Made by a program: the position numbers and the translations under genes. Below the pieces are notes generated by a model. The model was not told the origin of the DNA and ran no database searches. It saw only the letters and a list, made by a program, of their open reading frames with translations. A stretch of DNA of 64,000 bases, from the NCBI GenBank assembly GCA_041671505.1, contig JBAZBK010000010.1, positions 46,838 to 110,837 of the forward strand, in the 5' to 3' direction. Origin of the DNA: Thermoanaerobaculia bacterium (GTDB taxonomy: Bacteria; Acidobacteriota; Thermoanaerobaculia; Gp7-AA8). This document shows, piece by piece, positions 31,515 through 62,513 of this stretch; within the stretch, counting starts at the first letter, position 1; each line of letters starts with the position of its first letter.

Positions 31515-31632
31515 CCTGAAGAACCTGAAGTTAGAACGTAGAACGGTGAATTGAGAACCCAGAAAGGGGGACCGGGCGCCTCCTTCTTTCTGGGTTCTCA
31601 ATTCAACATTCTGCGTTCTAACTTCGGCCTTT
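31515..31632. repeat. Foldback hairpin, subtype E copy 1 (xxxxGAA heptads)
   Basis: cctgaagttagaacgtagaacggtgaattgagaacccagaaagg ... ccttctttctgggttctcaattcaacattctgcgttctaacttcgg. Copies also at 41018-41122 and 62415-62513. Confidence 0.55.
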
Positions 31633-33176: not shown

Positions 33177-35417
33177 CTAACGCGCCGCCAGCGACCCCAT
33201 CGGCACGATCGCCACGCCGCTGTAGTAGTTCTTCAGTATCGCGTCCGCCTTCGCGCCGCGCAGCGCCATTCCCTGCGAGCCGTTCTGACAGAAGCCGACC
33301 CCGTGGCCCCACCCCTTCCCGAGGAATGTGTAGCGGATGACGCCGTCGGCCCCCGTCAGCCTGTCGAAGACGAAAAGGTTGTCGGGGATGCCTAACGACC
33401 AGCGGATCGGCAGCCCTTCGAGCTTGAACGTCCGCCCCCCCTCCGCCTCGATCTCCACCGCGGTCGCCCGCTGCGACGCGTCGCGGCCGAGAATGCGGAT
33501 CGCGTGGAGCTCGCTGATCGGGTTGCGCCTGCTGATCGACGCGACGAGCTCGTCCGCGGTGAACGTCCTCACCCAGCTCGAGAACGACGAGCGGTTGTCG
33601 AACGCCGCGCCGTCGAAGTTCTCCTGCAGCACCACGCCGACGACCGCGTCGCCCCGGCGGAACAGCGTCGCCCGGTCGCCCGGCTGCGCCACGAGCTCCC
33701 GCTCCTCGCGGAAGCGGTCGTTCAGCTTGCGGAAGAGCGGCGTCCCCGGCGCGAAAATCGCGTTGACCTCGCTGTCCTTGCTCTTCACGACGACGAGCCG
33801 TCCGTCGCCGCGGACGAGGTTTCCGTTGAATTCGTTGAAGATCCCCATGTTGCGAAGCCAGCCGTAGAGCAGCGAGAACAGCTCGTCGCGCGTCATCGCG
33901 GCATCGAGGTCGCGCAGGTCGAGCCCGAGCAGCGAGGACGCCTCGAACTTCACCGCGACCGCCGCGACTCGCGCCGCGCGACCATCCTCGACTCCCGGCA
34001 TCAGGTAGCGGAGATCCTCGTCGAGCAGCAGCACCCGCGCCGCCTCGTCGAGTCCCCAGACCTCGCCGAGGTATTCGAGCACGTCGCGGCGCCGGCTCGA
34101 CTTCGGCGGCTTCGAGGAGCGCGGCGTGATTCCCGCGAGCGATCCGGCGGCCGAGACCGCCCTCGCGATCTGCGACGCGCTCCAGGCGGCGTTGACGTCG
34201 TCACCCTTCATCGCCACGGCACGCATCACCGCCGCGCGCATCCCGCTCTCGTCGGTCACCGCGCCGGTCTGCCGACCTTCGAAGTTCGCCGCCTCGAGCT
34301 CCACGCAGCGCGCGCGCTTGAGGTACGGCTCGCTGCGGCCGGGAAACATCACGCCGACGTCGGAGGTCTCGCCGCCGCAGGTCGAGGTGTAGAGCGCGTC
34401 GATCGGCTTGCCGTCGTACGTGATCACGAGCCCTGCCGTTTCCTTGACGGCGCGGTCGGAGAGCGGATGCTCGGTCGACTTCCCGCCGTAGACCTGGCAG
34501 CTCGGCGTCGCGCAGATATCGAACCCTTCCGTCGCGTACTCGCCGCGCCGGCTGACGACGTAGGTGCGCGCCGCGATCGCCTGCGCCTTCAGCGCCTCGA
34601 CCTGGTCGAAGATGTTCGGCCCCATCTCGTTAGGCACGACGCCCCGGACGTAGTCCTCGAGGTTGAGCTCGTTGACGAGGTTCAGCGTGCCGCGCGTGTT
34701 GAGGAAGACGCGCGCGCCGCCGCGGTACTGCTTGCCGGCGATCGCGATCCCCTCCGCCTCGCGAGGCACGACGAGGAGCGAGCCGGTATCGAACGAATGC
34801 TCATCGCCTTCGTCGTCGACGAGGCGGAGCCGCTGCACGAAGGGCTGCGACGACGGGCGCCGCACCGCGAAGATCTCCTTCGGCCACCCCTTCGCGATGA
34901 GGTCGGAGCGCGTCGGCTGCGACGACGGCTCGTCGGCGAAGTCGCCGGCGAGAACCTTGTAGCTCGCCACCGCCGTGTCGAAGACGAGGTCGGCGCGGAG
35001 CCCGGTCTCTTTTCTCACGCGCTCGGCGAGGCGCTCGGCGCTCGCCTTGTCGGAGATCGCGCCGACCTGGATCGCGTAGACGACGCGCGACGACGCGAGC
35101 GGCGCGTGGACCGTGAAGCCGCGGACGATCGTCCAGGTCGCGGCTCCCGACCTCACCTCGTATCCGCCGTCGACTCGCGCGAACGACGCAGTCGCGAGAT
35201 CGCTCGCGAGCCCCACGCGTACGACCGGCTCGACGAGCGGCGCCGACGGTGTCGCCTCCTTCCGGAGCGCGTTAGGGTGCCGCACGTGCGGCTCCTCGCG
35301 CGCCGGTGCCGGCGCGGGAGCGGGCCTGGTCGCGACGGGAGCGGGCGCGGTCGCGCAGGAGAGCGCGAGCGTCGCGGCGAGCGCAGCGAGGGCGTTCGAG
35401 AGTCGCAGCGTGATCAT
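33177..35417 (-). CDS. SpoIID/LytB-domain protein (peptidoglycan lytic transglycosylase/amidase enhancer family), secreted/lipoprotein
   Basis: SpoIID signature ...NLEDYVRGVVPNEMGPNIFDQVEALKAQAIAARTY...CATPSCQVYGG...TSTCGG... Start at ATG 35417 (MITLRLSNALAALAATLALSC, lipobox-like). The ORF in the track is over-extended. Confidence 0.75.
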   Translation of the reverse strand: MITLRLSNALAALAATLALSCATAPAPVATRPAPAPAPAREEPHVRHPNALRKEATPSAPLVEPVVRVGLASDLATASFARVDGGYEVRSGAATWTIVRGFTVHAPLASSRVVYAIQVGAISDKASAERLAERVRKETGLRADLVFDTAVASYKVLAGDFADEPSSQPTRSDLIAKGWPKEIFAVRRPSSQPFVQRLRLVDDEGDEHSFDTGSLLVVPREAEGIAIAGKQYRGGARVFLNTRGTLNLVNELNLEDYVRGVVPNEMGPNIFDQVEALKAQAIAARTYVVSRRGEYATEGFDICATPSCQVYGGKSTEHPLSDRAVKETAGLVITYDGKPIDALYTSTCGGETSDVGVMFPGRSEPYLKRARCVELEAANFEGRQTGAVTDESGMRAAVMRAVAMKGDDVNAAWSASQIARAVSAAGSLAGITPRSSKPPKSSRRRDVLEYLGEVWGLDEAARVLLLDEDLRYLMPGVEDGRAARVAAVAVKFEASSLLGLDLRDLDAAMTRDELFSLLYGWLRNMGIFNEFNGNLVRGDGRLVVVKSKDSEVNAIFAPGTPLFRKLNDRFREERELVAQPGDRATLFRRGDAVVGVVLQENFDGAAFDNRSSFSSWVRTFTADELVASISRRNPISELHAIRILGRDASQRATAVEIEAEGGRTFKLEGLPIRWSLGIPDNLFVFDRLTGADGVIRYTFLGKGWGHGVGFCQNGSQGMALRGAKADAILKNYYSGVAIVPMGSLAAR

Positions 35418-36616
35418 GCCGGAAAGAAGAGCTCCGCGAGACGCTTGATCCCCTCGCGCATCCTGTCGTCGGTTTCCTTCGCGAACGTTAGGCGCATCGT
35501 GTTGGCGCCCGAGCCGTCGACGAAGAAGGCGCCGCCCGGGACGAACGCGACGCCGCGCTCGACCGCGCGCGGCATCAGCTCGGCCGTGTCGCGCCCGTCG
35601 TCGAGCGTCACGAAGGTGAAGAGACCTCCACTCGACTTCGTCCACGTCGCGTGTCCCGTGAAGTGCCTGTCGAGCGCGCCGAGCAGTGTGTCGCGGCGGT
35701 CGCGGTAGAACGCGCGCACCGAGGCGATCTGGCCGGGAAGCTCGCCCGCGGCGCAGAATGCCGCGATGATCGACTCGTCGAGCATCGCCGAGCAGAGATC
35801 GGCCGACTCCTTCGTCAGCTCGAATTGCCTGACGAGCTTCGGCTCGCCGACGACCCATCCCGTGCGCAGCCCGGGCGAGAGAACCTTCGAGAACGAGCCG
35901 AGGTAGATGACCCGCTGCTCGTCGTCGTGCGTCTTGATCGGCGTCGTGTCGACGCCGTCGGCGAAACAGAGCTCGCCGTACGGATCGTCCTCGACGACGA
36001 GGAAGTCGTAACGTGCGGCGATCTCGAGCACCGCGCGTCGCCGCTCTGCGGCGAGCACGCGCCCCGAGGGATTCTGAAAGTTAGGGATCGTGTAGAGGAA
36101 CTTGACCTTGCGCCCCTCAGCCTTCATCCGCTTCGCCGCCTCCTCGAGCGCGGCGGGAACGATGCCGTCGTCGTCCTGCGCCACGCCGACGAGCTCGGCG
36201 CGCCGCGCGTAGAAGGCGCCGGCGCCGCCGATGTAGGTCGGCAGCTCGACGAGCACGACGTCGCCCGGGTCGAGCAGCGTCGCCGCCACGAGATAGAGCG
36301 CCTGCTGCGATCCGGTCGTCATCAGCAGCTGCGTCGCCGGGTCGCACGCGAAGCCGCGCTCGCGGCAGATCGCGGCAACCGAATCGCGCAGTGCTGGAAG
36401 CCCCCGCGTCGGGCCGTACTGCAGCGAGACCGCCGCGTTGTCGCGGACGACCTTCTCCGCGAAGTGCGCGATCCGCGCCGCCGGGAAGGTCGCCGGGCTC
36501 GGCGCGCCTCCGGCGAACGAGATGATCGCCGGATCGTTCATCATCGCCGCGAACTTCCTGATCGCCGACGGCCGCAGATTCCGCGCGTCGGCAGAGAAGA
36601 GAGCCTCACTCTGCAC
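35414..36616 (-). CDS. PLP-dependent aminotransferase, class I/II
   Basis: ...SFSKVLSPGLRTGW... (PLP-Lys context) and an N-terminal substrate-recognition region. 400 aa. 4-nt overlap with the downstream gene. Confidence 0.75.
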   Translation of the reverse strand: MQSEALFSADARNLRPSAIRKFAAMMNDPAIISFAGGAPSPATFPAARIAHFAEKVVRDNAAVSLQYGPTRGLPALRDSVAAICRERGFACDPATQLLMTTGSQQALYLVAATLLDPGDVVLVELPTYIGGAGAFYARRAELVGVAQDDDGIVPAALEEAAKRMKAEGRKVKFLYTIPNFQNPSGRVLAAERRRAVLEIAARYDFLVVEDDPYGELCFADGVDTTPIKTHDDEQRVIYLGSFSKVLSPGLRTGWVVGEPKLVRQFELTKESADLCSAMLDESIIAAFCAAGELPGQIASVRAFYRDRRDTLLGALDRHFTGHATWTKSSGGLFTFVTLDDGRDTAELMPRAVERGVAFVPGGAFFVDGSGANTMRLTFAKETDDRMREGIKRLAELFFPA

Positions 36617-37577
36617 GCTTGCCTCCGACGGGCCGCAGAGGGCCCTCGTGAACGACGATCGCGAAGCACGATGCCAGACAGAGGCCGAGGACCGAGCTCG
36701 CGAGAGAGCTTACGAATGTGAAGGCGATGCGGAGCGGAAGGACGAGGAGGTCGCCTCCCGGCATCAGCCCCGCCGAGTCAAAGGCGAGCCCCATCGTCGA
36801 CGATACGGTCGACACGCCGATCGATGCCGCCATGAAGATGAGCATCACGATGATCACCGTCGCGAGCCGCGCGCGGATCAGGTCGCCAGCCGCCGAGCTC
36901 GACTCGACCGCGCCGCGCGGCGTCCCGACGCAGATCGTGATCGCGATCTGCGCCCACACTCCCGCGACGATGGCGATCACGATGCCGACGAAGAGCACGA
37001 CGATCAGCCCGCAGCACGCCACCACGAGCGCCGCCGCGTTCTGGCCGATCAGCAGCATGAGCGCGAGGATCAGGACGAGCGGCACCAGCAGGAAGAGCCC
37101 CGCGACGCTCCAGACGATGTTGTAGACCCAGAAGACGCGCCAGCCGCGCGAGACGGCGTGGTCGATCACCTGCTGCAGCCGGAAGCGCTCCCATCCTTCG
37201 CGCCAGCTCCACGTCTCGCCGCGCCTCTCGTGATCCACGAACACGCCGGTCACGCCCGCCTGGAAGTACGAGTGGATGAGGCCGACGATGCCGAAGAGGA
37301 CGAAGACGACGAGCCCGATCACCGCCACGGCCGCCGAGTTCGCGACGAACCACCCCGCGGCAGCCTCGGCGATCGCCTCGGGATTGCTCCCCGGCGACCC
37401 AATGTCGCGGATCGCGTCCCAGTCGACCGAGAGCCCGACCGCGGCGATCGCGGCGACCACGCCGCCTAACATCACGATCACCAGGACCACCAGCTCGGCG
37501 AACTGCACGAAAAGGAGCGGCCAGTTCGCCAGCGTGGAGGCGACCCCGCGCCTGATGATGGTGAACGGATCGGTCAC
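36606..37577 (-). CDS. Polytopic membrane protein (GP-PDE-membrane-domain-like, unknown function)
   Basis: About 7 TM helices. Start is 2 nt downstream of the dnaC-like stop. Confidence 0.45.
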   Translation of the reverse strand: MTDPFTIIRRGVASTLANWPLLFVQFAELVVLVIVMLGGVVAAIAAVGLSVDWDAIRDIGSPGSNPEAIAEAAAGWFVANSAAVAVIGLVVFVLFGIVGLIHSYFQAGVTGVFVDHERRGETWSWREGWERFRLQQVIDHAVSRGWRVFWVYNIVWSVAGLFLLVPLVLILALMLLIGQNAAALVVACCGLIVVLFVGIVIAIVAGVWAQIAITICVGTPRGAVESSSAAGDLIRARLATVIIVMLIFMAASIGVSTVSSTMGLAFDSAGLMPGGDLLVLPLRIAFTFVSSLASSVLGLCLASCFAIVVHEGPLRPVGGKRAE

Positions 37578-37578
37578 C

Positions 37579-38298
37579 CTACACCCACTTGCCCGATACG
37601 TTCCTGCGGTAGTCGTCGGCGTCGACCACGACCCGCTCCGCCATCTCGAAGAGCCTGCTACGGAGCCGCTTGCCGATCCGCGTCTCGAGCGACTCTTCCT
37701 TCGGGTCGCGCGGCTCGTCGAGGTAGTTCGTCGTGAAGATCGTCGTCCGCTGCTCGTTGTAGCGCGTGTTGATGATGTAGTAGAGCATGTCCTGCACGAA
37801 GAGCGTCGGCTTCTGCGAGCCGAGCTCGTCGAGCACGAGCAGGTCGGCCGTCAGGATCGGCTCGAGGATCTCCGAGCGGCTCGGCGCGTGGTCCGAGTCG
37901 ATCGACGCGAGAATCTCCTGGATGAGATCCTGGAAGTTCGAAAAGAGAAGCCGCCCCGGCTTCCCTTGCGCAATGATCTCGAGAAGCGCCGCCACGGCGA
38001 GGTGCGTCTTCCCCGAGCCGCACGGCCCCATGAGCAGCAGTCCCCGCTCGGCCATCGGCCACTCGTCGACGAGCCGCGCGATGCGGCGCTTCGCCGAGGC
38101 GAGGGACGGGTTGTTCCGTTCGTGAAATCCCGCGAGCGTGCAGTGCGGCTTGTAGCGCGCGGGGATCTGCGCGTTCTCCCGCTTGAGCGTCCGCCTCATG
38201 TCGGACTGGCAGTTGCAGGGACGCACGTTGAACGTCCCCGGCTCGGGAACCCATCCGGAACCGTTGCAAACCTCGCAGGTCGTCACCACCGTGTCCAC
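37579..38298 (-). CDS. DnaC/DnaI/IstB-family AAA+ ATPase with N-terminal zinc-ribbon
   Basis: N-terminus CEVCNGSGW...PCNCQ (Cys4), Walker A LLLMGPCGSGKTHLAVA, Walker B LLVLDELG, and sensor/arginine finger residues. Confidence 0.7.
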   Translation of the reverse strand: MDTVVTTCEVCNGSGWVPEPGTFNVRPCNCQSDMRRTLKRENAQIPARYKPHCTLAGFHERNNPSLASAKRRIARLVDEWPMAERGLLLMGPCGSGKTHLAVAALLEIIAQGKPGRLLFSNFQDLIQEILASIDSDHAPSRSEILEPILTADLLVLDELGSQKPTLFVQDMLYYIINTRYNEQRTTIFTTNYLDEPRDPKEESLETRIGKRLRSRLFEMAERVVVDADDYRRNVSGKWV

Positions 38299-38336
38299 GG
38301 CCGGATGATACCACCCGCGCGCGGGGCCTCGAGGGG

Positions 38337-38590
38337 GCGGGCGGGGCAGGAAATGTGGAATCCGGAATGCGGTCCGCGGAACGAAAACCGAAATGTAGAA
38401 TGTCGAATGTTGAATGGAGAATGTAGAAAGGGGATTCGAAGACTGGGACCGGAGATTGGGAACGCACGCCGATAGCCGTGGACGCTGACTATTTCAACCG
38501 CGCGAGCGCTTCTCCATTCGACATTCTTCATTCGACATTCTTCATTTCGGTTTTCGTTCGCACTCTGCATCCCGCATTCCGCACGCCGCC
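38337..38590. repeat. 254-bp foldback element with xxGAATG heptad arms (subtype C)
   Basis: Left arm ggcggggcaggaaatgtggaatccggaatgcggtccgcggaacgaaaaccgaaatgtagaatgtcgaatgttgaatggagaatgtagaaagggg. The right arm is its imperfect reverse complement (...cttctccattcgacattcttcattcgacattcttcatttcggttttcgttcgcactctgcatcccgcattccgcacgccgcc). It fills almost the whole 336-bp divergent intergenic region. Confidence 0.55.
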
Positions 38591-38634
38591 ACCCCGCCCC
38601 CCCGGCGCTATACTCCTCCCTCACCACGTCCGCC

Positions 38635-40971
38635 ATGTCACAGCACCTCATCAACTACCTGAGCCTCAAGCCCGAGCAGTCGCCGTTCCTGCTCGCCTCG
38701 GATTTGCCGCGACTCCTGCCGGCGATCTTCACCCGCCCGGAGTGGCTCCTCCCGCGCCCCTACAAGATCTTCTTCATCGACGAGGCGGCGCCCCCAGGCT
38801 TCGGCTTCCCCGTGCTCCACTCCGAAGTGCTGCGCGACCTCGACACGAAGCTCGACCGCTGGCTCGCCGACGAGGTGAAGTGGCAGCTCAAGATGGAAGA
38901 CGCGCGCGAGCGCGCGCGCCAGGCGTTCGGCCAGTACGTCTCGATGGTGGTCAAGATCGCCGAGAACGCGATGCTGTCGAACCTGCTCGCCGACTACCAT
39001 GCGGTCTTCTGGCTCTCCCACTCGCTCGACCTCTCGCGCCACTTCATCAACCTGCCGAAGAGGATCAGCCTCGTCGACACGCAGGCGGCGAAGACCCAGG
39101 CCGACGCGATCAAGTACCGGATCTACTCGAAGTGGGCCGCCGAGATGCGCGAGCAGATGACGCGGCTCGCCGCGCGGCTCGCGCCGACCCTTGACGGCGA
39201 GGAGGAGCGCGGGCTGAAGTTCTTCCGCGTGATCCAGGACAACGTCCTCATTCTCACCGAAGAGTTCATCAGCCCCGACCTCCGGGAGCTGCGTCCCTTC
39301 TTCAACGGATATCTCCATCGCGACTTCTTCGCCTTCCGCGAGATGTTCGAGCGGCTGCAGGGACAGGCGGCGGAGCTCGCAAAGAAGGACGTCACCTTCC
39401 GCGGCCTCGTCGGCCTCTTCGGCGTGAGCCCCGACCAGGGAATCCCCGTCGCGCTGATGCTCGACCAGAAGTTCCAGGACGTCCTCTTCGGACTTCCGGC
39501 AGTCGAGCTGCGGGTCTCGCGCGAGGAACGCGAGCAGCTCCGCTCGCTCTCCCGCCGCCTGCAGGAGTACTCCGTCCTCAACGCGCTGCGGCGCGGCATC
39601 ACCTGGATGGCACAGCTGCCTAACGGCGACACCGTCGCCCTCGACCGGCGCACCGGCGTCGTCTATTCGCGCGCCACCCGCCCCATCGACTTCGGCCGCC
39701 CGGGCGTCGTCGACCCGATGGTCTACCGCTTCGGCCTGATGTACGACATCAGCGCCTTCTCGCAGACCCTCGGTGACGTCGCCCGCACCGGACGCAAGGG
39801 CGAGTTCACCGCCTACCGGCAGATGCTCCTCTTCCAGAAGAAGCTCGCGACGATCACCGACCGCCACGTCCTTCAGTTCGAGAAGTTCCTCGGCGACGGC
39901 GCGTTCTACACGACGCGCCGCGCGCTTCGCCTCGTCCTGGCGTCGATCGAGATCCAGCGCTTCTACTCCGAGATGCGCCGCAAGGGCTTCGCCTTCAACA
40001 AGGGACTCAGGATCGCGCTCAACTACGGCTACTACCGCCTCCTGCCGCTCAAGGGGACGCCCGACTCGCCCGAGCACGTCATCGAGTTCTACGGCCCCGG
40101 CGTCGTCGAGCTCTCGCGCCTGACGACCGGCAAGGCGACGAAGGAAGTCGAGGAGATCCAGACCTTCCTCGTCGCGCACGGCTACGACACGAACGAAGTC
40201 TCGCGCTTCTTCGCGCCACTCGCGTCGGGCGCCGACATGGTCGACAAGGAAATGCACCAGCGCGAGTTCTTCGCCTACGTCAACCAGAACGGGCACCTCG
40301 TGAACGAAGGGCTCGTCTCGTCGATGAGCCTCGTGAGCGAGCTCTCGGGCGAGCTCGCCGCAGAGGGCCACCAGCTCTATCGCATCCAGGCTGCCTGGAG
40401 CAGCTACATCGGCTTCAGCGCCCCGATCGACGGCGTCGACTTCATCGGCGTGAAGCTGATCGGTCGCGTGCAGCTCAAGGGGCTCGGCAAGATCGAGGTG
40501 GCGGAGTTCGTCCCCTTCAATCGCGCCGACGTGACCGAGACGCGCACCGACGACGGCGAAACGCTCTTCAGCCTGCTCCGGCAGGAGTTCCACCAGTCGA
40601 CGCTGACGCGCCCCGACGACGAGTTGCTCGCCCGCTCGACCGGCGAGAGCCGGAAGCCGGTGCAGCAGATCCTCGTCTGTTTCTTCCGCGACCCCGCCAA
40701 CTCTGCTCCCGCGGTCTACCTCGGCGAGTGGGACCCGGCGATGGACTCGCTCCGCAACGCCGTGCGCCTCGCCGACGGCGACCTCGAGTCGCGCCTCGGG
40801 ATCGTGCTCCCCGTCACCGCCGAGGCGCTCGGACGGGAGCGCGAGAACGTCCTCAGCGTTTACCTCGACGAGGCGCGCGACTCCTATCTCCCGTCGATTC
40901 CGATGGACAGCGTCCGCACCCTCCCCGAGCTCCGCCTCTTCCTCGTGGGACTGTCCGTCGAAGCGCTGTAG
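38635..40971 (+). CDS. Large hypothetical protein with a divergent class III nucleotidyl cyclase (CHD)-like palm domain
   Basis: Central region ...VYRFGLMYDISAFSQTL...FLGDGAFYTTRRALRLVLASIEIQR...GLRIALNYGYYRLLPLK...EFYGPGVVELSRLTTG... parallels the cyclase motifs F-x-D-I-x-GFT / K-x-x-GD-x-x-M / R-I-G-I-H-x-G / GDTVN-x-A-SR, with both candidate metal Asp residues present. The flanking about 350-aa N- and 250-aa C-regions are unrecognised. Confidence 0.5.
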   Translation: MSQHLINYLSLKPEQSPFLLASDLPRLLPAIFTRPEWLLPRPYKIFFIDEAAPPGFGFPVLHSEVLRDLDTKLDRWLADEVKWQLKMEDARERARQAFGQYVSMVVKIAENAMLSNLLADYHAVFWLSHSLDLSRHFINLPKRISLVDTQAAKTQADAIKYRIYSKWAAEMREQMTRLAARLAPTLDGEEERGLKFFRVIQDNVLILTEEFISPDLRELRPFFNGYLHRDFFAFREMFERLQGQAAELAKKDVTFRGLVGLFGVSPDQGIPVALMLDQKFQDVLFGLPAVELRVSREEREQLRSLSRRLQEYSVLNALRRGITWMAQLPNGDTVALDRRTGVVYSRATRPIDFGRPGVVDPMVYRFGLMYDISAFSQTLGDVARTGRKGEFTAYRQMLLFQKKLATITDRHVLQFEKFLGDGAFYTTRRALRLVLASIEIQRFYSEMRRKGFAFNKGLRIALNYGYYRLLPLKGTPDSPEHVIEFYGPGVVELSRLTTGKATKEVEEIQTFLVAHGYDTNEVSRFFAPLASGADMVDKEMHQREFFAYVNQNGHLVNEGLVSSMSLVSELSGELAAEGHQLYRIQAAWSSYIGFSAPIDGVDFIGVKLIGRVQLKGLGKIEVAEFVPFNRADVTETRTDDGETLFSLLRQEFHQSTLTRPDDELLARSTGESRKPVQQILVCFFRDPANSAPAVYLGEWDPAMDSLRNAVRLADGDLESRLGIVLPVTAEALGRERENVLSVYLDEARDSYLPSIPMDSVRTLPELRLFLVGLSVEAL

Positions 40972-40980
40972 CAGCAGCGC

Positions 40981-41170
40981 CATCCCGATCCCGCGAAGCG
41001 GGAGAGGGATCTGCAGCTAATTCAAAGGCTGAAGTTAGAACGTAGAACGATGAATGTTGAACCCAGAAAGGCGGGTACCCGTTTCTGGGTTCAAAATTCA
41101 ACGTTCTACGTTCTAACTTCGGCCTCTTCTCCTCCCGCGTACACCTGTCGGCAATGCCGCCGCCTCTGCG
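40981..41170. mobile_element. Truncated MITE copy (M3) with a subtype-E foldback (41018-41122) inserted inside it
   Basis: catcccgatcccgcgaagcgggagagggatctgc matches the left end of M2 at 33/34 positions. After the inserted hairpin, M2-like sequence resumes (cacctgtcggca...). Confidence 0.5.
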
Positions 41171-41226: not shown

Positions 41227-42117
41227 ATGAATCACCCCTCGCTCGCAACGACGTCGCTCCCGCTTCCTCTCCATCGCCGCGGCAAAGTGCGCGACGTCTA
41301 CACGCTCGACGATGCGCTCCTGCTCGTCGCGACCGACCGGATCTCGGCCTTCGACGTCGTCCTCTCTCCCGGCGTCACCGGCAAGGGCATCGTCCTCACG
41401 CAGCTCTCGAACTTCTGGTTCCGGAAGTTCGGCTTCGTGAAGAACCACCTGATCGAAACCGACCTCGACCGCTTCCCCGAAGCGCTGCGCGCGCACGGCG
41501 AGCTCCGGGGCCGCGCGGTGATCGCGAGGAAGTGCGAGGTCGTGCCGGTCGAGTGCGTCGCGCGCGGCTACCTCGCCGGATCGGGATGGAAGGAGTACCA
41601 GCAGAACGGCGAGGTCTGCGGCGTCGCGCTCCCCGCGGGGCTCCGCCAGGCGTCGAAGCTCCCCGAGCCGATCTTCACGCCGGCCACGAAGGCGGACGAA
41701 GGGCACGACGAGAACATCCCGTTCGCGCGGATGAGCGATATCGTCGGCGCGGAGCTCGCCGGAAAACTGCGAGACCTGACCCTCACGATCTACACCGAGG
41801 CCGCGGCGTATGCGCGGGAGCGCGGCGTCATCATCGCCGACACCAAGTTCGAGTTCGGAATCGCCGACGGCGAGATCGTGTGGATCGACGAGGCGCTCAC
41901 CCCCGACTCCTCGCGTTTCTGGCCCGAGGCGGAGTATCGCGAGGGGACGAATCCGCCGTCGTTCGACAAACAGTTCGTCCGCGACTGGCTCGAGTCGACC
42001 GGGTGGGACAAGACTCCCCCCGCGCCCGAGCTCCCCGCCGACGTCGTCGAGCGTACCCTCGGAAAGTACCGTGAGGCTTACACGATGCTGACCGGCGCGG
42101 ATCTAGCGCTCGGTTAG
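41227..42117 (+). CDS. purC: Phosphoribosylaminoimidazole-succinocarboxamide synthase (SAICAR synthetase)
   Basis: ...[29 protein letters not shown]... Start at ATG 41227. The upstream part of the ORF overlaps repeats. Confidence 0.9.
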
Positions 42118-57212: not shown

Positions 57213-57581
57213 CAGCGTTCGTCCGCGAAAACCGAAATGTCGAATGTCGAATGAGGAATGAAGAATGGAGAAACAAGGCCCGTCGCATTGACCCTTTCTT
57301 CATTCTTCATTCGACATTCGACATTCGACATTTCGAATTCTCGACCCCCTGCACCGACCTCGCCGATCGCCGAACGCACGCACGGCCCGCCTGAACAAAA
57401 CTCAGCGTTCGTCCGCGAAAACCGAAATGTCGAATGTCGAATGAGGAATGAAGAATGGAGAAACGAGGCCCGCCGCATTGCCCCTTTCTTCATTCTTCAT
57501 TCGACATTCGACATTCGACATTTCGAATTCTCGACCCCCTGCACCGACCTCGCCGATCGCCGAACGCACGCACGGCCCGCC
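57213..57581. repeat. Tandem 190-bp duplication, each unit containing a subtype C/D foldback hairpin (xxGAATG heptads)
   Basis: Unit 1 is 57213-57402 and unit 2 is 57403-~57581, near-identical. Each unit has cgaaaaccgaaatgtcgaatgtcgaatgaggaatgaagaatggagaaa ... tttcttcattcttcattcgacattcgacattcgacatttcgaattctcg. Hairpins at 57226-57343 and 57416-57533. Lies between convergent genes. Confidence 0.6.
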
Positions 57582-62414: not shown

Positions 62415-62513
62415 CCGAAGTTAGAAGTTAGAACGTTGAATGTTGAATCCAGAAAGGCCTGAGCGGCTTCTTTTCTGGGTTCAAAACTCAACGTTCTAAC
62501 TTCTAACTTCAGG
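62415..62513. repeat. Foldback hairpin, subtype E copy 3
   Basis: ccgaagttagaagttagaacgttgaatgttgaatccagaaagg cctgagcggcttc ttttctgggttcaaaactcaacgttctaacttctaacttcagg. Confidence 0.55.

Follow-up and report, generated by a model that had tools for sequence, protein, structure and literature searches.

What does a conserved protein with cyclase-like motifs at its center do in a group of bacteria known almost entirely without cultures? The Thermoanaerobaculia are widespread Acidobacteria of soil and sediment, almost uncultured, and little is known of their signaling. In the 64,000-nt stretch of Thermoanaerobaculia DNA that we analyzed (the window), one open reading frame encodes a protein of this kind. 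It could be a divergent but working nucleotidyl cyclase, or its central domain could have been put to another use.

38635..40971, + strand: target gene, a complete open reading frame of 778 aa (88.5 kDa, pI 6.2), with its ATG at 38635 and its stop codon ending at 40971

The initial annotation of this DNA, made from the letters alone, gave the same extent, strand, and length, and its four quoted motifs begin at residues 370, 419, 458, and 484. Homologs align from the first Met. The GC3 of the gene (0.94) matches that of its neighbors (0.90 to 0.92), and we therefore regard it as native. No transmembrane segment was predicted in the protein (top 19-residue hydropathy, 1.4), which is predicted to be soluble.

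Family distribution and sequence-model searches

The protein had been described as an orphan, a label that proved wrong. In a search of 5.8 billion proteins, 1,077 of the 8,000 scored candidates matched it at E <= 1e-3. Among the 120 matches listed, nearly all are full length (about 770 to 830 aa), with identities of 52 to 93%, and every match that carries an organism name comes from Thermoanaerobaculia or from an Acidobacteria MAG. Among 1.84 billion cluster representatives, all of them searched with a profile, the family comprised 243 clusters at 50% identity, taking in distant full-length forms as well as shorter ones (~609 to 690 aa) that lack the C-terminal domain; the ~680-aa form is likewise acidobacterial. 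With each GTDB species represented by a single genome, relatives turned up in 266 genomes, and all of the 80 retained belong to Thermoanaerobaculia/Acidobacteriota. Nearly all family members are annotated as “hypothetical protein”; of the exceptions, NCBI names one a “nucleotidyl cyclase domain-containing protein,” and JGI names another a “class 3 adenylate cyclase.” Our literature search found no description of the family. Overall, the distribution computed here is that of an uncharacterized, lineage-specific family that is core to one class of soil Acidobacteria, the Thermoanaerobaculia. One distant member, P0208 (567 aa), has GGG in place of GDG in the hairpin and Ala in place of the transition-state Arg; this paralog or ortholog has likely been inactivated.

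Scans of the 778-aa query with Pfam, NCBIfam, and PADLOC models returned nothing relevant. Pfam likewise gave nothing relevant for 33 aligned members or for 10 distant ones. In particular, PF00211 matched none of the 33 at E <= 10, and at E <= 1 it matched neither the query nor any of the 10. The curated gathering score of PF00211 was reached by none of the sequences scanned, the relationship being detected solely by profile-profile comparison. Thus, the family is invisible to Pfam and NCBIfam models, though its center carries a cyclase-type domain. Sequence and profile searches of the PDB yielded chance matches only (a tRNA-splicing endonuclease, E 0.19; APS kinase, E 2).

Fold and active site of the central domain

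Two AF2 models were built. The first covered the full length with 33 close homologs, and its pLDDT fell below 50 across the catalytic core, which made the core unusable. The second was restricted to residues 320 to 650 (39592-40584), with 39 more distant members added (core identity, 29 to 56%), and reached a mean pLDDT of 89.2 and a pTM of 0.81. The protein is organized as follows.

38635..39594, + strand: N-terminal all-alpha region, residues 1 to about 320, family-specific
Residues 322-361: short beta region that runs into strand beta1
39718..40545, + strand: class III cyclase homology domain (CHD), residues about 362-637
40135..40272, + strand: family-specific two-helix insertion between alpha4 and beta6, residues about 501-546 (model secondary structure; gap in the hhalign alignment)
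Residues 581-628: elongated beta hairpins within the cyclase domain
40552..40968, + strand: C-terminal alpha/beta domain, residues about 640-778, missing from the ~609- to 690-aa forms

The fold computed for residues 320 to 650 is that of a CHD (beta1-alpha1-alpha2-beta2-beta3-alpha3-beta4-beta5-alpha4-beta6-alpha5-beta7-beta8). When this model was compared with the PDB by Foldseek, all of the top 50 matches were catalytic domains of class III adenylyl or guanylyl cyclases (E 5e-8 to 3e-6; probability, 1.00), with target-normalized TM scores of 0.41 to 0.78 that are at least 0.6 for isolated catalytic domains. These matches identify the center specifically as a cyclase homology domain rather than a generic palm. 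The structure-based check that the initial annotation had proposed, Foldseek on an AlphaFold model, thus returned class III cyclases and no unrelated fold. The cyclase-like palm that it described is borne out as class III homology, but the boundaries it gave, residues ~375 to 520, were too narrow. Of the large flanking regions that it could not annotate, the N-terminal one is without informative relatives, and the C-terminal domain is without known ones.

Next, we aligned the family core with a reference profile of 123 catalytic domains, comprising 3 cyclase sequences from PDB alignments and 120 proteins with PF00211. A consensus-like cyclase probe served only for retrieving these real sequences and is not itself evidence. 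The hhalign comparison gave a probability of 95.7% (E = 8.5e-9) over residues 368 to 467, and residues were counted in 168 family members, 127 close and 41 distant.

39745..39747, + strand: D371, first Asp of the metal-binding pair, where strand beta1 ends (YDISAF on FaDIxGFT; confident hhalign; 168/168)
39883..39897, + strand: K417-F-L-G-D421, beta2-beta3 hairpin (on DKFiGD; confident hhalign; K417 and D421 both 168/168)
40009..40023, + strand: R459-I-A-L-N463, strand beta4 (on R-I-G-I-(H/N); confident hhalign)
40084..40119, + strand: E484...V491-E492...R495 (hhalign and member counts)
40477..40482, + strand: K615-G616, strand beta7, corresponding to the triphosphate-binding Lys of the cyclase “KG” (L-K615-G on v-K-G in a low-mact extension; K615 invariant)

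Nine residues (D371, E416, K417, D421, R459, E492, R495, K500, and K615) are invariant in all 168 members. The motif-by-motif likeness to class III cyclases noted earlier is recovered by this alignment, as is the pair of metal-binding Asp residues, with D371 and D421 falling on the reference Asp positions. By alignment, K417 is the substrate-specifying Lys, D421 the second metal-binding Asp, and R459 the equivalent of the phosphate-binding Arg. A low-stringency extension of the alignment places G487-P-G-V-V-E-L-S-R495-L on G-D-t-V-N-l-A-s-R-L, making the invariant R495 the equivalent of the transition-state Arg. The Asn-Arg pair on alpha4 is incomplete, however. The Arg is kept, and the ribose-binding Asn, present in 123/123 reference cyclases, is absent from every one of the 168 members, its position (V491) being Val or Ile in 166. 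Directly after it lies E492, an invariant Glu specific to the family; K500, also invariant, precedes the two-helix insertion.

Substrate choice in class III cyclases depends on two positions, with Lys plus Asp/Thr pairing for ATP and Glu plus Cys/Ser/Gly for GTP. The first is Lys in 103 of the 123 reference cyclases. The second, seven residues before the Asn site, falls on E484 by global alignment and ungapped spacing, but the local extension has a two-residue gap there; E484 is fully conserved in the close clade and replaced by D or Q in some distant members, and it is, as far as sequence comparison goes, the probable second substrate-specifying residue. To our knowledge, Lys plus Glu is not among the characterized pairs, and the substrate is therefore uncertain.

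Proposed activity and gene neighborhood

We consider it likely, by analogy with known enzymes, that the protein is a soluble class III nucleotidyl cyclase that works as a homodimer and receives regulatory input through its flanking domains. Its cyclase domain is very divergent and, judging from its residues, apparently functional. What we infer for dimerization, catalysis, and regulation is as follows. Two copies would pair head to tail, as in all characterized class III cyclases. One subunit would contribute D371 and D421 for binding two Mg2+/Mn2+ ions, and its partner K417 and E484 for recognizing the base; R459, R495, and K615 would bind the triphosphate and stabilize the transition state. 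Attack of the 3'-OH on the alpha-phosphate would then release a 3',5'-cyclic nucleotide and pyrophosphate. Because Lys and, probably, an acidic residue occupy the specificity positions, ATP and cAMP are the most likely substrate and product. Presumably, the N-terminal helical region and the C-terminal domain regulate this activity. Counting against a cyclase are the lack of a PF00211 match, the change of Asn to Val/Ile, the differing placements of E484, the uncharacterized Lys/Glu pairing, and the unreliable core of the first full-length model. The earlier suggestion of an uncharacterized signaling or second-messenger enzyme is thus supported by both fold and residues, but its c-di-NMP option is unlikely; neither a GG(D/E)EF hairpin motif nor a GGDEF-type fold was found in the protein.

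Alternatively, the domain could be a pseudo-cyclase to which a nucleotide, probably ATP, binds for sensing or regulation without being cyclized, the protein serving as a scaffold or regulator. We find this unlikely. Degenerate cyclase domains normally lose some catalytic residues, but here the metal-binding Asp pair, the transition-state Arg, and the triphosphate-binding Lys/Arg residues are invariant down to about 30% core identity. P0208, with its lost residues, shows how decay looks in this family. Moreover, the missing Asn does not in itself imply inactivity, given that the Mycobacterium avium cyclase Ma1120 is active without it.

We computed synteny over 80 related genome loci.

35414..36616, - strand: class I/II aminotransferase, third in the divergent unit (in related loci, the homolog matches Pfam Aminotran_1_2)
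36606..37577, - strand: membrane protein without family assignment, second gene of the divergent unit
37579..38298, - strand: DnaC/IstB-like AAA+ ATPase, 239 aa (Pfam IstB_IS21, 3e-15)
38299..38634: divergent intergenic region, 336 bp, with a GAATGTN-heptad foldback (arms 38379-38428 and 38510-38559)
41026..41125: second heptad foldback, in the target-purC spacer (44-nt arms, 93% complementary)
41227..42117, + strand: purC (SAICAR synthetase), co-directional downstream gene (Pfam SAICAR_synt, 2.5e-75)

As first described, the target is transcribed divergently from the ATPase and membrane protein genes across a foldback, with 50-nt arms in the 336-bp spacer. The neighborhood conservation analysis proposed at that time shows that the ATPase adjoins the target divergently in 61/65 loci with enough flank, that the membrane protein is the next gene in 57 of 61, and that an aminotransferase homolog comes next in 47 of 52. 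The ATPase, which may be the helicase loader of the lineage, has a Cys-rich N-terminal stretch (CEVCNGSGW...CNC) and does not reach any NCBIfam cutoff (top model, PRK08116, with 116 bits versus 189); it is ~60% identical across the class, and the adjoining membrane protein only about 30%. Upstream of the aminotransferase, the long open reading frame at 33177-35858 (- strand) corresponds to a SpoIID/SPOR-domain protein, with the domains annotated on its homolog in locus L001, and is syntenic in many related loci; its first ~170 residues are Arg-rich and probably untranslated. Downstream of the target and co-directional with it, 40/49 loci have a helicase of ~830 aa that combines DinG/XPD with a Cas4-like N-terminal nuclease domain; this gene is absent from the 64,000-nt window. 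Examples are L004 (10365-12815) and L014, where the helicase lies 52-2541 bp downstream of the target; it matches the PADLOC model typeIV_DinG (6e-107).

Palindromic GAATGTN foldbacks are dispersed in the window (31599-31618, 38379-38559, 41026-41125, 57235-57333, 57425-57523, and 62431-62450), where the heptad pattern has 33 matches versus 1.8 expected by chance. A foldback specific to the target gene is ruled out, as five further intergenic sites in the window carry this element. The elements resemble REP-like intergenic repeats, two of which flank the target.

The link to purC is unevenly distributed. A 255-bp spacer, which contains the second foldback, separates the two genes in the window, and purC lies immediately downstream and co-directional in the window's own sub-clade (L001 to L003). 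It is found downstream in only 6/59 main-clade loci, but directly downstream and co-directional in five of the six sampled divergent-clade loci of the ~680-aa form and in a 609-aa relative. This co-directional adjacency was seen in L006, L088, L089, L090, L092, and L093, even in clades ~30% identical, and a 4-bp overlap of the pair in L089 suggests an old operon. Since the linkage occurs in the window's own sub-clade as well as in deeply divergent clades, the target-purC pair appears to be the older arrangement. The pairing is suggestive of co-expression and is not evidence of function.

A further alternative is an active enzyme whose product is not cAMP. Candidate products are cGMP and a cyclic pyrimidine nucleotide like those of Pycsar and, in view of the operon-like purC link, a compound connected with purine biosynthesis. 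Such a product is quite unlikely: structurally, the domain comes closest to purine cyclases, the Lys at its first specificity position is one that adenylyl cyclases typically carry, neither a Pycsar-type effector neighbor nor a PADLOC match was found, and the purC link is lost in the largest clade (6/59 loci). The change of Asn to Val together with E492, the Lys/Glu pair, and the persistence of the purC link across deep family splits also raise the thought of a different reaction altogether, in which an unusual nucleotide would be consumed or made, or of signaling coupled to purine synthesis. We hold this to be decidedly unlikely; if true, it would be a new second-messenger or metabolic-signaling system, core to a whole class of Acidobacteria. 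Finally, a role in DNA replication or repair, with the palm-like domain as a nucleotidyl transferase acting alongside the DnaC-like loader and the DinG-type helicase, draws on the conservation of those two neighbors and on DnaB lying nearby in three loci of divergent clades, but is highly improbable given a fold that is specifically of the cyclase kind rather than the palm of a polymerase or primase, the lack of the helicase in the window and of the DnaC-like gene in divergent clades, and the lack of a nucleic-acid-binding domain.

Comparison with known cyclases

A class III cyclase, the reading that we favor, is a known kind of enzyme; what is new here is a Pfam-invisible family with an altered active site. 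The family, conserved in at least 266 species-level genomes, broadens the range of sequences known for class III cyclases, and its members consistently replace a residue that is considered almost universal. It also flags two putative regulatory domains, and a family model could end the “hypothetical protein” labels. The recurring purC link suggests a hypothesis on nucleotide-pool signaling that can be tested.

The closest known proteins are the class III CHDs (PF00211) of Pseudomonas aeruginosa CyaB (3r5g), Mycobacterium tuberculosis Rv1900c (1ybt), Synechocystis Cya2 (2w01), and Spirulina CyaC (1wc0), to which the target is 12 to 17% identical. In contrast to these enzymes, the family has Val/Ile for the invariant Asn with an adjoining invariant Glu, a helical insertion of ~45 residues after alpha4, long beta hairpins, and flanking domains of ~320 and ~140 aa. 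GGDEF diguanylate cyclases and the Cas10/mCpol palms are more distantly related, having in common with the target the palm core, the Asp on beta1, and the G-D turn on the hairpin. The Pycsar pyrimidine cyclases, which synthesize cUMP or cCMP (7r65, 8jsz, and 8jsf), sit in defense operons beside an effector, whereas the target is a conserved chromosomal gene in a housekeeping-type neighborhood maintained across the 80 loci, and nothing around it marks a defense system of Pycsar or CBASS type.

Among all structural matches, Ma1120 (4wp3), a class III adenylyl cyclase, has the top identity to the target, 21%. With only ~170 residues it is a minimal protein, and one recognized by Pfam-type models, whereas the family carries large extra domains. 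In this regard, K101, D157, A164, and R168 of Ma1120 correspond to K417, E484 (as probably assigned), V491, and R495, a common pattern of Lys, acidic, small hydrophobic, and Arg residues. The family has Glu where Ma1120 has Asp and Val/Ile where Ma1120 has Ala, and Ma1120, naturally without the Asn, is nonetheless active; the family is thus a second natural Asn-less lineage beside it.
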